Shown: piece after piece, positions 2,612 to 50,020 of the stretch
How positions within the stretch are numbered: position 1 is the first letter of the stretch
Layout of the letters: every line of letters starts with the position of its first letter
Origin: a virus
Lineage: Duplodnaviria; Caudoviricetes
DNA: 50,020 nucleotides
IMG/VR virus record: IMGVR_UViG_3300037781_000013
Location: 1-50,020 of that record
Direction: 5' to 3' (one strand)
Notes under the pieces: generated by a model
What the model saw: the letters and a program-made list of their open reading frames with translations, nothing else
Told to the model about the DNA's origin: nothing
Databases searched by the model: none
Position numbers and translations under genes: made by a program

Positions 2612-2929
2612 ATGAATGAAGAAGAAAGAAACATCTTGCGAGAAGTAGAAGATAGAAGGTGGAACACTGCCAGCAGAATGCATACCAGCGGATTCTGGTC
2701 AGGCTTGGGGATAATGGCTTCATTGTCTCTCCTGTTAAATAATGAGCCTTGGACATTCTTCTTCTGGTTTGGTGTTGTGTTCCTTCCTGTTCTGTCTTTT
2801 ATGGCATACAAGAACTGGAAGCTATCCAAGTCTTTCGATGATTTGGAGACACAAGGTATGCAACACTTGGCAGTGATGTCTCGTATTCTATCCGAAGCAC
2901 TGGAAGAGGTTGACAAATCTAAAGATTAG
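2612..2929 (+). CDS. hypothetical membrane protein
   Basis: Two hydrophobic segments; GAGGA RBS. Confidence 0.7.
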   Translation: MNEEERNILREVEDRRWNTASRMHTSGFWSGLGIMASLSLLLNNEPWTFFFWFGVVFLPVLSFMAYKNWKLSKSFDDLETQGMQHLAVMSRILSEALEEVDKSKD

Positions 2930-2937
2930 TGTATAAT
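2910..2937 (+). promoter_or_regulatory. sigma70 promoter
   Basis: Perfect TTGACA-N16-TATAAT. Confidence 0.8.
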
Positions 2938-3055
2938 AAGAATTGTATAATATACTATATACATATATTTATATAATAAATATATAATACATATTATATA
3001 TTATATATAATTCTAAATACATTATAACATTGTTATAAATACTATATACATAATA
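2938..3055. other. near-pure A/T tract containing a dyad copy (3023-3037)
   Basis: About 120 bp almost devoid of G/C. Confidence 0.8.
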
Positions 3056-3066
3056 GGAGATATATT

Positions 3067-3321
3067 ATGAATAAACTTAAATTCTACTACACCAATGGTA
3101 AAACATACAACGCATCCAGAGTGACCAGTCATATTGTAACGCCTCACTCAGTTGATTACATTCGTGATGTTGTGGTGGATAATATCCGCAAGAGTGAGTT
3201 TATATCTGTACCACTCACAGACTTGGCTTGTCTGAAAGTGAAGGACTCAAAAGATCATTCCGACACTTTTCACCGCATCAAGCCTAGTCATCCAGTGTGT
3301 GTATCTATTAACAAAGGGTAG
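3067..3321 (+). CDS. hypothetical protein
   Basis: AGGAGA RBS. Confidence 0.7.
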   Translation: MNKLKFYYTNGKTYNASRVTSHIVTPHSVDYIRDVVVDNIRKSEFISVPLTDLACLKVKDSKDHSDTFHRIKPSHPVCVSINKG

Positions 3322-13329: not shown

Positions 13330-13570
13330 ATTTATGGATGCCTCACCGGGAGATTTAATTAGAAACCCGGAGTCCGGTTTAATATATTTAATGGTAGATG
13401 AGGGTAGAGAGGGGGTGATGAGACATGTTGTATTTAACAATGAAGTTTCCCTTGCCAATCTACATCCTAGAGAAGTTAGGAGGTTTGGGCTAGAAACTCA
13501 GGAAAAGGAGTTTGAATACCTTTGTAACCTTTCTGCTACATTGATGGAGATAGATAGTAATGACAGCTGA
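13316..13570 (+). CDS. hypothetical protein, paralog family C (3/3)
   Basis: RFMDASPGDLI...FEYLCNLSATL. Confidence 0.75.
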   Translation: MKMVRFMDASPGDLIRNPESGLIYLMVDEGREGVMRHVVFNNEVSLANLHPREVRRFGLETQEKEFEYLCNLSATLMEIDSNDS

Positions 13571-14729
13571 TAATAAAATATTCTTTGACCTAGAAACTTC
13601 TATTAAAAATAGAGGGGAGAAGGCCATAGGAAAGAACAAAGCCTCTCCATATTGTGTAGAGAACAACATTGTGTATGCTGGATGGAGTAGAGGAGGCTTC
13701 TATTCTGTAGGGCATGAAATACCATTTCGCTCAGGGTGTACATACATAGCACATAATATTGCTTTTGATTTGTCACATTTGATGTGTAACCACAGCCATT
13801 GGAGAGAGGCTGTATTTAAGAAGCGAATTAAAATATGGGACACAATGATTGTGGAATATCTTCTGACAGGACAACGCCTAACGTGGGCTTCTCTGGATGA
13901 CTTAGCATTCCTGTATGGAGGAACACAGAAGGACAGCAGGATTAAAGAGTATTGGGAAGCTGACATAGACACAGAAGACATTCCTGTTGAGGAGATATTG
14001 CCCTATCTGGAAGATGATGTTAAGAACCTCATTATAATTGAGAAGGGCCAGAGAGACTTGGCTGAGAAGTTAGGCATGTTGCCCCTCATTGAGAGCCAGA
14101 TGGAAGCAAGGCTAGCCACAATTATGATGGAATTTAATGGAATGTCATTTGACAAATTGCTGGCAATGCAATATGCTGTAGCTCTAGATAGGGAACTAGA
14201 TGCTGTGTATGTTGAGCAACACAAGCTAATGCAAGATGTGTTTGATTGCCTTCCAGACTGTCTCAATCCTAATTCTAATGAACAGATGAGTGTGTATTTA
14301 TTTGGAGGAGAGTTCCCCACTAAACAGTCTCTTCCCCAATTTAATCCTGATGGTAGTCCTATTATTTATAAAACAGGGCAGAAGAAAGGACTCCAGAAGC
14401 ACAAGATGGAGACGGTGATGGTGGCTCCGGGTTGGGGACATGTGATACACGACCCATTAGATCACAGCTCTGTTAAGAATAAGAAGGGGTTTTACACAGT
14501 GAATGAGGAGACACTTAAGAGTTTGAGCAACGACAACAATAATTTTGCTGACAATGCTTTGAAAATACGAGAACTAAAAAAACAAATATCTACTTATTTC
14601 AGAGGGTATAGTGACTTGGTGTGGCCTGATGGTTTGATACATGGACAACTCAATCATTGTCAAACAGCTACAGGTAGACTATCCAGCTCACAGCCTAATT
14701 TGCAGAATTTAAGTGGTAAGAAAAGCTAG
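13560..14729 (+). CDS. polA: family A DNA polymerase, N-terminal part (3'-5' exonuclease plus thumb)
   Basis: FDLET ExoI, HNIAFD ExoII, YLEDD ExoIII; ends with TATGRLSSSQPNLQN. Confidence 0.9.
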   Translation: MTADNKIFFDLETSIKNRGEKAIGKNKASPYCVENNIVYAGWSRGGFYSVGHEIPFRSGCTYIAHNIAFDLSHLMCNHSHWREAVFKKRIKIWDTMIVEYLLTGQRLTWASLDDLAFLYGGTQKDSRIKEYWEADIDTEDIPVEEILPYLEDDVKNLIIIEKGQRDLAEKLGMLPLIESQMEARLATIMMEFNGMSFDKLLAMQYAVALDRELDAVYVEQHKLMQDVFDCLPDCLNPNSNEQMSVYLFGGEFPTKQSLPQFNPDGSPIIYKTGQKKGLQKHKMETVMVAPGWGHVIHDPLDHSSVKNKKGFYTVNEETLKSLSNDNNNFADNALKIRELKKQISTYFRGYSDLVWPDGLIHGQLNHCQTATGRLSSSQPNLQNLSGKKS

Positions 14730-15734: not shown

Positions 15735-16622
15735 ATGGCGAATATTAAAGAATGTTTTAAGTCTAGATGGGGAGACAATGGGGTTATTGTAGAAATTGAC
15801 TTCTCTCAGCTGGAAGTTATAGGAGCTGCCACTGTATCAGGCGACCCTATGATGAAGGCTGACATTATGAATGACATTGATAGTCATAGCCAGAGTGCTA
15901 GCTGGCTGAATCCTCAGCACACATACGATGAGATTAGGGCAGGGTATGTAAACGACGACCCCTTCTTCACTGAGATGAGGAAGAAAGCAAAGGCTCCCCG
16001 CTTTGAGCTACAATACGGAGCAAGAGCACCGAGCATAGCACGTAACAACAAGATTAGCTTGGAGAAAGCACAAGGCTTTATTGATGCCTATTATGACAGG
16101 TATAAAGTGTTGAAGGCTTTCCAAGAGGATGTACAGGAGCAAGTGGAAGCTTCTATAAGGCTCTCTGACAGGAGAACAGCTTCAGGACAACCCGCAGGGG
16201 TGGGGGAATATATATCCATCACAGGAAGGCGTTATAGCTTCTATGAGCAAGATAGTCCTCAATGGCTAGCAGACAAAGGACAGCCACGTAGCATTAGTCC
16301 TACACAAATAGCCAACTACCCAATGCAGGGCTTTGCTACAGGAGACATTGTGCCAGAGGTGTTGGGAAGAGTGCATGACTACATTGCTGACCGGGATTTA
16401 TACGAACAAGTGTTGATGATTAACACTGTTCACGATAGCATCATCTTCGATGTCCACAGGGACAAGGCATATGAGATGAACAATATTGCTAAGTATATGG
16501 AAAATGTCCCGGCATTTATGAACGAAAGATTTGGAATTACTATTGACTTACCCTTTAAAGTTGATGTAGAATATGGACGCAATTGGGGAAACATGAAATC
16601 AAATTACCAAGATACATTATAA
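15735..16622 (+). CDS. polA: family A DNA polymerase, C-terminal part (palm and fingers)
   Basis: Motif A DFSQLE, motif B RKKAKAPRFELQYG, NYPMQG, motif C VHDSI. Confidence 0.9.
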   Translation: MANIKECFKSRWGDNGVIVEIDFSQLEVIGAATVSGDPMMKADIMNDIDSHSQSASWLNPQHTYDEIRAGYVNDDPFFTEMRKKAKAPRFELQYGARAPSIARNNKISLEKAQGFIDAYYDRYKVLKAFQEDVQEQVEASIRLSDRRTASGQPAGVGEYISITGRRYSFYEQDSPQWLADKGQPRSISPTQIANYPMQGFATGDIVPEVLGRVHDYIADRDLYEQVLMINTVHDSIIFDVHRDKAYEMNNIAKYMENVPAFMNERFGITIDLPFKVDVEYGRNWGNMKSNYQDTL

Positions 16623-19451: not shown

Positions 19452-19832
19452 TTGCCTAGAAAAAAGAAAGTGGTAAAACCAAGAGTGCCTCGTACCAGAG
19501 GCAATGCAACAATGACTGAGGCTCAGTTTTGGGGGTTTGTACGTTCAGGACTAAGAAGTAAGAGTCAGAGATGGCCTCCCAAGTTTGCTGTTCTACAGGA
19601 TGCAAAGAGGACAGTGAAAGGTAAGAGACATAAGTATGAATATCAATGTGCTCTATGTAAGAAGTGGAACAAGATGACAGAGGTGAGTGTAGATCATATA
19701 GTTCCTGTAGGAACATTGAGGTGTTACAATGACCTTCCGGGATTTGTAGAACGACTATTCTGTGAGAAAGAGGGGCTTCAAGTATTATGTAGAGAGTGTC
19801 ACAACACTAAGACACAGGAGGAAAGGAAATGA
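19452..19832 (+). CDS. HNH endonuclease
   Basis: CALC...VDHIVP...LQVLCRECH; TTG start after GAGGA. Confidence 0.85.
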   Translation: MPRKKKVVKPRVPRTRGNATMTEAQFWGFVRSGLRSKSQRWPPKFAVLQDAKRTVKGKRHKYEYQCALCKKWNKMTEVSVDHIVPVGTLRCYNDLPGFVERLFCEKEGLQVLCRECHNTKTQEERK

Positions 19833-25785: not shown

Positions 25786-25997
25786 CTAGTACGTAGAACG
25801 CAGATATTAGGGAGAGGACTCCTATACTTAACCTCTCCTTGTGCTATGTAAGACAAACAGCCATCTTTATCAAAGATTAATTGCGGTGGTTTCTCTGGAG
25901 TGGGGGAAGGTTTTATCTCCTCCCTTCTCTCCTTCAGGGAAGCCAACCACAATCCCATCACCACTAATAACAATGTTATAAGAAACAGCTTTCTCAT
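25782..25997 (-). CDS. small membrane-anchored protein (possible lysis accessory)
   Basis: N-terminal TM segment; end of lysis cluster; one-mismatch dyad at 25966-25980. Confidence 0.6.
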   Translation of the reverse strand: MRKLFLITLLLVVMGLWLASLKERREEIKPSPTPEKPPQLIFDKDGCLSYIAQGEVKYRSPLPNICVLRTS

Positions 25998-48028: not shown

Positions 48029-48530
48029 GGATACGCTCCTTATCTGTTGTGATGGTTTTTGTTCTAGAGTCTACTCCCTGTAGGTATTTCCTTTTTTCTT
48101 CTTTAGAGGGCTTTCCTCTCTCTGTCCTTTTCTCCCATCCCTTCTCAACAATCCACTTAGCAGCTGAGAAGTTATCAGGGGCCATCTTCCTAATGTTCTG
48201 GATGCATTCACTCACAAGTTTGGCATCCCTCTCCTCTCTCCAATCTTCTATGTGTTCTGCTAGACAGTCAGTGTCTTGTATTCTTTGCCAGTGTTGCCAT
48301 CCACCCAAATGTTTATTAGCAAACTCATATTCCTTAGGATCATCACAGCTAAGAAACAATTTCTTTAAGCTGGCATACACCACTTCATTACCATGCTTAT
48401 CTGTCTCTACAATATCCTCATCCTTCAATGTAAAGAGAGCAAGCTCTCGTCCCTTGGCATATGTATGCTCATAAAACAAAGACTTTGTAATCCACTGTCC
48501 ACTTGAGTTTTTAAACTTATTATCTGGCAT
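48015..48530 (-). CDS. putative terminase small subunit
   Basis: First gene of the late arm, near TerL; LF.E, Y.S...L....D..EY.FA...LG.W.HW. Confidence 0.6.
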   Translation of the reverse strand: MPDNKFKNSSGQWITKSLFYEHTYAKGRELALFTLKDEDIVETDKHGNEVVYASLKKLFLSCDDPKEYEFANKHLGGWQHWQRIQDTDCLAEHIEDWREERDAKLVSECIQNIRKMAPDNFSAAKWIVEKGWEKRTERGKPSKEEKRKYLQGVDSRTKTITTDKERILAKR

Positions 48531-48551
48531 ATACTATTCTGTAGACAACTT

Positions 48552-48669
48552 ATGTATTTAATATATTATTTATATAATTATTATATAATATTTTTCTATA
48601 GGAAAAATATAAACATGTATATAAATATATTATAATTAATATATAATTTAATACTTACTATACAATAGT
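48552..48669. other. near-pure A/T tract (leader of the late arm)
   Basis: About 115 bp with very few G/C. Confidence 0.75.
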
Positions 48670-48699
48670 ATTATAACATGTATTCTATCTATCTGTCAA
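48670..48699 (-). promoter_or_regulatory. sigma70 promoter for the late (structural) arm
   Basis: Minus strand TTGACA-N18-TATAAT with extended -10 TGn. Confidence 0.75.
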
Positions 48700-48854
48700 C
48701 AACTATTTCCAATATTTTATTTTATTGCAGAAATTATTTAGTTGCATTAATAACAATAATCAGACAGTTAACCCCCTTCCCTACCCCTTTTCCAGCCTTT
48801 TTGTCCTATATTATTTTTTGTTAGTTACAATTAATTTAGGTTAGCATTATGTTA

Positions 48855-48866
48855 GTGAGTGCTTAC
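48855..48866. promoter_or_regulatory. SlmA-binding-site-like dyad GTGAGTGCTTAC
   Basis: 10/12 match to the E. coli SBS consensus GTGAGTACTCAC. Confidence 0.5.
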
Positions 48867-48947
48867 ATATAATTTAATGGAATAAGTAAGAGTTGCAATA
48901 ATCAACTAACAACATTCACACTCAATACGCCTTATATATTTGCAACA

Positions 48948-48960
48948 TAAGTTGTTGATT
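48948..48960 (-). promoter_or_regulatory. IHF binding site
   Basis: AATCAACAACTTA fits WATCAANNNNTTR exactly. Confidence 0.55.
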
Positions 48961-49165
48961 TTGCTGGGGTTTGTGTATTTATATTAATTGCTCGCTATCG
49001 CTCGCTTTCTTGCTACTATATATAGGCAATACATAATACATGTTTAGTTATATTGAATGGTGTTTTTATTCCTATTTGTTATATGCCTCTCTAGCTTCCT
49101 GTAAGCCGTTCTAAGCGCGTTTTGTGTTTAGTGGTAGGTTGGTATTAGATTAAAATAATTCGACT

Positions 49166-49184
49166 AATGAGAATAATTCTCGCA
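49166..49184. promoter_or_regulatory. Fur-box-like site
   Basis: AATGAGAAT-A-ATTCTCGCA, 7-1-7 TGAGAATnATTCTC. Confidence 0.6.
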
Positions 49185-49187
49185 ATG

Positions 49188-49204
49188 TTGGCATGGCATT
49201 TGCT
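49188..49204 (+). promoter_or_regulatory. sigma54 (-24/-12) site
   Basis: TTGGCATGGCATTTGCT with GG-N10-GC spacing. Confidence 0.55.
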
Positions 49205-49227
49205 ATGCATTCTTGCTCAGTAGTGGC

Positions 49228-49242
49228 TATAACAATGTTATA
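49228..49242. promoter_or_regulatory. 15-bp dyad TATAACAATGTTATA (perfect copy)
   Basis: Upstream of the UP element of the first early promoter. Confidence 0.8.
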
Positions 49243-49273
49243 AGGAATTAATAAAAATAATTTAAAAAAGTGT

Positions 49274-49301
49274 TTGACACCACCTTTTAGATGTGCATAA
49301 T
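49274..49301 (+). promoter_or_regulatory. strong sigma70 early promoter
   Basis: A/T-rich UP element, TTGACA-N16-CATAAT. Confidence 0.75.
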
Positions 49302-49493
49302 GACTAGCCATAGAGCTATGGAAGTGTACTGCAACTTCCCGGAGAAGGACTCAATAGCTCGCTGACCGAAATGCCAGCCGCACCCGATAGGCGTAAAGCG
49401 ATACACACTTACTTATGACTTAGCTATAAATATTCAACAAAGGGCTGTTAGATTGACAGTCCTTGATTGAGTGTTTATCCTGACACTCTCGCT

Positions 49494-49508
49494 TATAACA
49501 ATGTTATA
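49494..49508. promoter_or_regulatory. 15-bp dyad TATAACAATGTTATA (perfect copy)
   Basis: Directly 5' of the terminator. Confidence 0.8.
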
Positions 49509-49514
49509 AGACTG

Positions 49515-49540
49515 GAGGGCGCATTGCGCCCTCTCTTTTT
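49515..49540 (+). terminator. intrinsic terminator
   Basis: GAGGGCGC-ATT-GCGCCCTC-TCTTTTT. Confidence 0.8.
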
Positions 49541-49584
49541 GCTCAAATGATGATAGCATTTTAGGTGCAACGAGGTGCAACGAG

Positions 49585-49872
49585 ATGAGATTGAAGAATG
49601 CAAAAGTATGTAAAGCTAGTGAAGTGGAAATAGGTGGTATATATGGTCATCCAAACTATGAAGGAGATGACACTACTAGTATGCTGTTTATGAGAGTAAA
49701 CAAAGATGATGGTGGTGGTTATTTTAGTGCATTTCTGGTTGCTTGTGATGGTAGTAGAGCTAATGTGCTGGATGGGACAATGAGTCATACGCCCTTTGAT
49801 TCTACCGTATTGTACAATCCAGACATTAATATAATTAATTTGTTTATTGATACGGTGGTGGAACATGATTAA
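49585..49872 (+). CDS. first early hypothetical protein
   Basis: GAGG RBS inside an AGGTGCAACG tandem duplication. Confidence 0.7.
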   Translation: MRLKNAKVCKASEVEIGGIYGHPNYEGDDTTSMLFMRVNKDDGGGYFSAFLVACDGSRANVLDGTMSHTPFDSTVLYNPDINIINLFIDTVVEHD

Positions 49873-50020
49873 AGAGAGTGGAGCTATGGCACTGGAGGAT
49901 GTGCCCGTTGGTTGTGTTGTTCAATATGACGATGAACTATATCTAAAGCTAGATGAACAAGCAGATGATGACGGTGATTATTACTGTGCTAAGTTTGCAA
50001 GGGAAAGTCGTGGAGATCGT
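49865..50020 (+). CDS. 5' part of a hypothetical protein continuing to 214
   Basis: Open frame across the circular junction. Confidence 0.7.
   Translation, partial: MIKESGAMALEDVPVGCVVQYDDELYLKLDEQADDDGDYYCAKFARESRGDR

Follow-up and report, generated by a model that had tools for sequence, protein, structure and literature searches.

A predicted non-coding leader between a strong promoter and a strong terminator ahead of the early genes of an uncultured Zobellviridae-like phage

Why would a phage place a near-consensus promoter and a strong intrinsic terminator in front of its first early gene with no recognizable gene between them? The question is raised by IMG/VR record IMGVR_UViG_3300037781_000013, which is one complete virus genome of 50,020 bases (42% GC overall); the window analysed here is this entire stretch of DNA, at its full length of 50,020 bases. 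The first 127 bases of the record are identical to the last 127, which is taken to be a circular assembly overlap. The genome is that of an uncultured Zobellviridae-like podophage from a pond, and its large terminase shares 60-63% identity with the enzymes of Vibrio phage ICP2 and of oyster-associated Zobellviridae. Comparison with PHROGs identified packaging and virion genes (terminase, head-tail adaptor, major head protein, internal virion protein and tail appendage) and genes of metabolism and replication (ribonucleotide reductase, primase, helicase, DNA polymerase, cobT-like and porphyrin-type ATPase genes), while most early ORFs had no match among the 60 proteins scanned. The DNA polymerase is encoded in two ORFs (13560-14729 and 15735-16622) with four small ORFs without assignment in between, and an HNH endonuclease gene is found at 19452-19832.

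The genes form two arms. Early and replication genes lie on the + strand, from 49585 across the junction to approximately 25.8 kb, and packaging and virion genes lie on the - strand, from 48530 down to 25782; the leader region sits inside the 1,055-bp gene-free spacer that separates the two diverging arms. Where the arms converge, positions 25881-25950 (+) carry the most stable local fold of the genome (z -5.9, 25 pairs), which adjoins a one-mismatch copy, at 25966, of the palindrome discussed below and is probably a terminator separating the two gene arms. On the far side of the spacer, a perfect sigma-70 consensus (TTGACA-18-TATAAT with an upstream TG) occupies 48670-48699 (-), 140 nt before the small-terminase-like gene, in surroundings of 6-21% GC with many AT palindromes (48550-48650). 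This perfect consensus suggests that the virion-gene arm, too, is started from a host-type promoter.

The promoter-to-terminator unit

The signals that delimit the leader, and the ORF that follows it, are listed here.

49243-49273, + strand: A/T-rich tract (29-36% GC) immediately 5' of the -35 hexamer
49274-49301, + strand: sigma-70-type promoter, TTGACA-16-CATAAT, 11 of 12 consensus matches
49453-49481, + strand: second promoter-like site, TTGACA-17-TATCCT, 10 of 12 consensus matches, within the long hairpin
49514-49541, + strand: intrinsic terminator (stem 49514-49534), 9-bp stem with 7 G-C pairs, 3-nt loop, then CTTTTTG
49585-49872, + strand: first early ORF, 95 aa, GAGG Shine-Dalgarno, no family match

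Sites that match at least 11 of the 12 consensus positions number nine in the genome, compared with 1.6 +- 1.1 in 100 shuffles (largest count 5), and all nine are co-oriented with the surrounding genes. By its letters the promoter at 49274-49301 is a credible one, and transcription would start at about 49306-49310; the A/T-rich tract in front of it resembles an UP element. Use of the promoter and of the terminator is predicted from consensus. Two other promoters of the early arm may be noted. The first, a second strong promoter (TTGACA-16-TAGAAT, region 242-400), precedes a 34-codon hydrophobic ORF (296-400) that has a GGAGG ribosome-binding site and is missed by default ORF lists. The other, a 12/12 promoter in the region 2910-3066, is followed by a leader of TATA-type inverted repeats (~6% GC), and a copy of the palindrome, at 3023, comes after this AT-rich leader and precedes the gene at 3067.

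The terminator at 49514-49541 is the strongest terminator-like site in the genome, coming top in all three whole-genome scans. It is one-directional, with no T-run on the opposite strand, and its U-tract holds a run of five U (six U in seven positions). Since a terminator with five U need not be completely (100%) efficient, read-through requires no special device. Some 50 nt separate the terminator from the ORF at 49585, and no promoter-like site was found in this interval; this ORF and the next therefore need read-through transcription. A tandem 10-nt repeat (GGTGCAACGA, twice) at 49564-49584 forms the ribosome-binding region of the first early ORF.

Within the leader, the + strand 3' of the start offers two 15-codon frames and one 27-codon frame with a TTG start; no Shine-Dalgarno sequence precedes any of them, and none exceeds 27 aa. 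A scan was defined for units in which a promoter with at least 10 of 12 matches is followed by 60-400 nt without an ORF of at least 35 aa and then by a strong terminator. It returned exactly one unit in the window, from the promoter at 49274 to the terminator at 49541, and none in 68 related loci (575,936 bases). These results support in silico what the initial annotation had read from the letters, namely that the leader is a discrete ORF-free unit on the + strand, running from a strong promoter to a terminator ahead of the first early ORF. PHROGs families of phage RNA polymerases, antiterminators and transcription regulators were absent among the 60 proteins scanned; given the absence of a phage polymerase or antiterminator family, transcription probably relies on the host polymerase, an enzyme that such terminators stop.

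The stretch is present in only two DNA runs, both pond metagenomes, and in none recorded as RNA, which says nothing on expression. Matching contigs amount to four identical pieces from one run, without variants and with none spanning 49258-49492. The leader unit is a prediction from sequence.

Predicted folding of the leader RNA

The leader was folded as a whole and in segments, each compared with 200 shuffles.

49307-49405, + strand: 5' domain; z -1.03, 27 of 200 shuffles as good
49313-49360, + strand: predicted three-way junction, in the minimum-free-energy fold; folded as 49307-49362, z -1.79, 13 of 200
49361-49400, + strand: short GC stems; folded as 49361-49420, z -0.43, 69 of 200
49418-49485, + strand: segment folded for the interrupted hairpin; z -6.62, 0 of 200
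49418-49485, - strand: the same segment; z -1.20, 23 of 200
49469-49488, + strand: alternative 7-bp stem, GAGTGTT / GACACTC, which competes with the 3' arm of the long hairpin
49488-49545, + strand: segment folded for the dyad and terminator; z -5.23, 0 of 200

On the + strand, the 239 nt from 49307 reached -78.1 kcal/mol (z -4.78, with none of 200 dinucleotide shuffles as good); the same 239 nt on the - strand gave z -2.78, with 1 of 200 shuffles as good. The minimum-free-energy fold reproduces every stem of the initial annotation, whose coordinates are all correct: GAGCTAT (49313-19) pairs with ATAGCTC (49354-60) and encloses GGAAGT/ACTTCC and GAG/CTC, the arms of the long hairpin are where they had been placed, and the alternative GAGTGT/ACACTC stem, the dyad at 49494-49508 and the terminator stem at 49514-49534 are present both in the sequence and in the fold. 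The z-scores of the segments indicate that the fold signal comes from the long hairpin and from the dyad and terminator, not from the 5' domain. Of the proposed structured RNA of ~230 nt, the 3' ~125 nt thus stand, and structure beyond chance is found only there; the claim is not confirmed for the 5' domain. This 5' part (49300-49399) has 53% GC within a spacer of 6-37% GC and folds no better than shuffles, and these GC-rich 100 nt could be what is left of foreign DNA or of a stretch that was once coding.

The same 5' stems had been proposed as a put-like antitermination leader. HK022 put consists of two independent stem-loops; the HK022 record carries no feature annotated as put. A cis-acting processive antitermination RNA of this kind would let polymerase pass 49514 and later terminators, and the leader is like put in that a structured RNA directly follows an early promoter, with stems that start 6 nt after the expected start of transcription, and terminators lie downstream; the lack of an antiterminator protein family among the 60 proteins scanned would also fit. 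However, the stems that this explanation needs are at chance level, the predicted fold is a closed three-way junction instead of two separate stem-loops, and the sequence is not conserved in relatives. An RNA that defeats its own terminator would, moreover, make the terminator pointless. Nothing in the leader is specific for put, and we regard this explanation as extremely improbable. A riboswitch-like switch was also considered and is not indicated, as inspection by eye found no upstream segment that pairs with the 5' arm of the terminator.

The interrupted hairpin (49426-49478) has 23 bp in two stretches, of 12 and 11 bp, which are separated by a 2x2 internal loop and capped by a GAU loop. 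Its arms are ATAAATATTCAA (49426-37) and TTGAGTGTTTAT (49467-78), with inner arms AAGGGCTGTTA and TGACAGTCCTT; 19 pairs are Watson-Crick and four are G-U, and four further outer pairs extend it to 49420-49483. On the + strand the four imperfect positions are all G-U wobbles, each of which would become an A-C mismatch if the opposite strand were transcribed, and it is because these pairs work on the + strand only that the hairpin is strand-specific, as had been claimed for it. In composition-corrected windows of 70 nt across the genome, only 4 of 19,958 fold better than the hairpin window, the adjacent dyad/terminator window ranks second among distinct places, and the 240-nt window from 49401 (+) ranks 4 of 2,496. 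The hairpin is the sole part of the leader with evidence of selection at the RNA level. Its likeness in shape to an RNase III site, also pointed out at the outset, is supported in silico, by the predicted fold.

From these signals we infer how the leader would be transcribed, how far its transcripts would terminate, how they would be processed and what the short RNA would do. We lean towards the view that the region is the non-coding, promoter-proximal leader of the first early operon, which gives a short RNA and keeps the first two early ORFs at a reduced level; the hairpin is likely to be a double-stranded RNA element for processing or stability. Host sigma-70 RNA polymerase would initiate at ~49307, and most, or at least a large share, of the transcripts would end at 49514-49541 to give an RNA of ~235 nt. 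The fraction that reads through would carry the 95-aa ORF and the next ORF, and because these lack a promoter of their own, the terminator would set their expression low, beneath the level that the promoter by itself would allow. The 23-bp hairpin would act as RNA, most likely as an RNase III-type (double-strand-specific) processing or stability element; its cleavage would part the 5' segment from a 3' fragment free to adopt the alternative stem along with the dyad hairpin and terminator. The palindrome copy beside the terminator would be a member of a genome-wide set of 16 sites bound by a putative factor.

The palindrome set and relatives of the locus

The dyad next to the terminator is a copy of a 15-bp palindrome, TATAACAWTGTTATA, that recurs throughout the window.

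49228-49242, no strand assigned: upstream copy; the 17 nt 49228-49244 are identical to 49494-49510
49493-49511, + strand: second copy; its RNA would fold into a stem of 8 bp closed by a 3-nt loop and separated by 2 nt from the terminator stem
216, 411, 783, 3023, 3979, 4461, 7275, 11028, 17694, 22752, 49228 and 49494: perfect copies
1927, 15254, 25966 and 30038: copies with one mismatch

The window holds 16 copies (12 perfect and four with one mismatch), and when up to three mismatches are allowed and both strands are counted there are 35 matches, against 3.4 +- 2.2 expected. Most copies are intergenic and belong to the early/middle arm; in six or seven cases, 0-2 nt separate the end of the copy from a Shine-Dalgarno sequence. 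The centre is always A or T (A in 10 copies, T in six). Multiple copies also occur in seven other IMG/VR contigs: L067, L111 and L126 have replication genes in common with the window (tblastx), at the 50-75% amino-acid identity of such contigs, and L059, L100, L134 and L171 are linked to it solely through the same palindrome spacing. Terminator-like hairpins lie within 90 nt of only 3 of 62 palindrome copies, and the palindrome does not contain the conserved last T of a -10 hexamer. No mention of TATAACAWTGTTATA was found in the searchable literature. Candidate roles for it are those of a roadblock or operator site, of a hairpin that serves as a translational operator, and of a linker for recombination; as a genome-wide element it may be a more rewarding lead than the leader itself.

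The leader unit is flanked by two identical 17-nt copies of the palindrome, and this bears on the possibility that the locus works at the DNA level only, through protein-binding or cruciform sites of the terminase-early spacer (an origin, a packaging site or operators), with any RNA incidental. The unit does lie in a gene-free spacer adjoining the packaging genes, its flanking palindromes carry A or T centres in either orientation (10 versus 6), as for a symmetric DNA-binding dimer, and a perfect -35 hexamer falls within the hairpin. Yet G-U pairing at the four imperfect positions of the hairpin is a property of the + strand; in DNA form, or read from the - strand, the repeat is much weaker (z -1.20), and the terminator works one way only. 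We consider an explanation by DNA elements very unlikely.

Relatives of the leader were sought among RNA families and among phage loci. An Rfam search, which had been proposed as a check, recovered no family: at the gathering thresholds the whole window gave no match (DicF, C4 antisense RNA, phi29 pRNA and riboswitches included), and a permissive search of 48500-50020 with Rfam 15 gave four matches, all with E values of at least 2.8 and scores of 18-21 bits against gathering thresholds of 50-79. ARAGORN detected no tRNA or tmRNA gene in the window. No homolog of the leader was found among 50,697 phage records by blastn 'distant', nor among 52 terminase-related IMG/VR loci by nhmmer and blastn; among 170 loci, matches by the same two programs were confined to the palindrome and the sequence beside it. 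In exact-pattern scans the hairpin had no match among contigs of the viral, metagenome and genome collections, and the 5' junction had none among genome contigs. A looser 5' pattern matched one viral contig, inside a coding region, and was judged a chance match. The neighbouring proteins are similarly isolated, with no relative of the small-terminase-like protein in viral or metagenome contigs and none of the 95-aa ORF protein in viral contigs.

Loci compared by position do not contain the unit. L059 and L171 span the same junction, with a spacer of 565-576 bp, one palindrome, a leader of ~95 nt and the first early gene, and neither has a promoter-to-terminator unit there. G001 (94% complete; TerL 50% identical) has the palindrome, and no terminator at the corresponding position; in ICP2 and an oyster phage the gene order is different. 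Loci that have a terS relative and 500 nt or more of sequence number 21. Promoters with at least 10 of 12 matches are absent from all of them, a weak negative because promoters of another type may serve in these phages; terminators are present in one (L048). As no homolog was found and the relatives lack the unit, it appears specific to this phage among everything available. Its position between identical palindrome copies, together with its absence from relatives, suggests rather than demonstrates insertion by palindrome recombination.

An isolated sequence of this kind might have no function, the promoter, hairpin and terminator being left over from recombination or from a decayed gene and tolerated in the spacer. 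That the sequence is an orphan missing from relatives, and that its 5' half has no significant fold, is consistent with this. What such a remnant would not lead one to expect is a near-consensus promoter, the strongest terminator of the genome and a local fold among the top three, in the right order and on one strand; we give this explanation as little credence as the one by DNA elements.

The unit could instead encode a stand-alone immediate-early small RNA that acts in trans, as a regulator of host or phage mRNAs or as a decoy or sponge, for example one that titrates the palindrome-binding factor, in which case the terminator defines the gene. Its promoter-to-terminator architecture is moron-like, the identical flanking 17-nt palindromes and the absence from relatives fit insertion of a cassette, and the 5' domain differs in composition from the spacer. 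StxS, as described in its report, offers a precedent for a promoter-proximally terminated short RNA that is active in trans (PMC7547250). Against this, apart from the palindrome nothing else in the phage genome is complementary to the leader, other 11-mer matches being at chance level, there is neither an Rfam relative nor conservation, and read-through is needed in any case because the downstream ORFs have no other promoter. The more specific suggestion of an anti-defence decoy or antitoxin mimic has no support, as the leader contains no tandem repeats and shows none of the family matches or complementarity that might back it. For the motif GCTCGCT, 6 sites against an expected 3.0 +- 1.7 do not amount to enrichment. 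Overall, a trans-acting RNA is possible, though doubtful.

A bolder form of this idea, which we think distinctly unlikely, is that of an RNA-only moron. The unit would then be an immediate-early gene complete in itself, encoding a regulatory or decoy RNA of ~235 nt and inserted between palindrome copies by recombination. Its 3' palindrome hairpin, which has an A centre, could titrate the putative palindrome-binding factor, and perfect pairing would also be possible with the U-centred copies directly beside the ribosome-binding sites of the genes at 810, 4488, 7301 and 11054. If this were true, the timing of the 16-site regulon would be tied to the first transcript.

Comparison with known phage leaders

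For the reading that we favour, a leader with a double-stranded RNA element and a leaky terminator, the closest likeness for the hairpin is with the early intergenic hairpins of T7, for example between promoter A3 and gene 0.3, which we take to be RNase III sites. As in T7, a hairpin of upper stem, internal loop and lower stem lies between host-type early promoters and the first early gene, and its predicted fold has approximately two turns of double-stranded RNA with an internal loop (12 + 11 bp). When the T7 intergenic regions were folded for comparison, their predicted upper stems were of 9-13 bp and their lower stems irregular, whereas the hairpin of the present phage is longer and more regular. 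It is also a single site, in contrast to one per gene junction in T7, and it is followed by a terminator, which T7 lacks at that place.

The lambda 6S RNA and StxS are described as short transcripts from the late promoter PR' that end at tR' (PMC7547250). They are like the leader RNA in having a strong promoter with a terminator immediately 3', so that a short RNA is the default product. In that description, however, these units head late operons and are opened by the Q antiterminator, whereas the present unit heads early genes, and no Q-like PHROGs family was found among the 60 proteins. The PeSLs of T4-type phages are reported as composite terminator/promoter motifs that lie between early genes and bound insertions and deletions (PMC4122927). 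The leader resembles such cassettes, as that report presents them, in that a repeated motif, the identical palindrome copies, bounds a unit absent from relatives; here, the motif contains neither a terminator nor a promoter.

The best match for the unit as a whole is found in lytic Pseudomonas phages, for which 42 terminators inside 5'UTRs have been reported, 34 of them giving read-through and long transcripts or a predominant short RNA of <250 nt, along with 29 candidate non-coding RNAs whose function is given as not known (10.1101/2023.10.13.562163). The present leader is of the same form as these 5'UTR RNAs in that account: in a lytic phage, upstream of the first gene, a promoter (49274-49301) is followed within 250 nt by a terminator (49514-49541), with a structured RNA of ~235 nt predicted between them and the ORF at 49585 beyond. 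The Pseudomonas phages belong to unrelated families with other hosts and have no sequence similarity to this one, and their RNAs have been mapped, with long-read RNA sequencing and northern blots; the leader RNA here is predicted. The mapping of such short-RNA units is recent and covers a few Pseudomonas phages, and none of the units is known to have a function. If the leader is transcribed as predicted, it would add another lytic phage in which a leaky terminator and a short non-coding RNA, not a protein, come first in infection. The leader adjoins a 16-copy palindrome regulon in a Zobellviridae-like phage in which no polymerase of its own was detected, so that the two can be studied jointly. 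A phage layout of promoter, hairpin and terminator without a gene is real and unusually well marked here, yet fairly ordinary: other lytic phages are already known to share this layout, of which the unit is an orphan representative.
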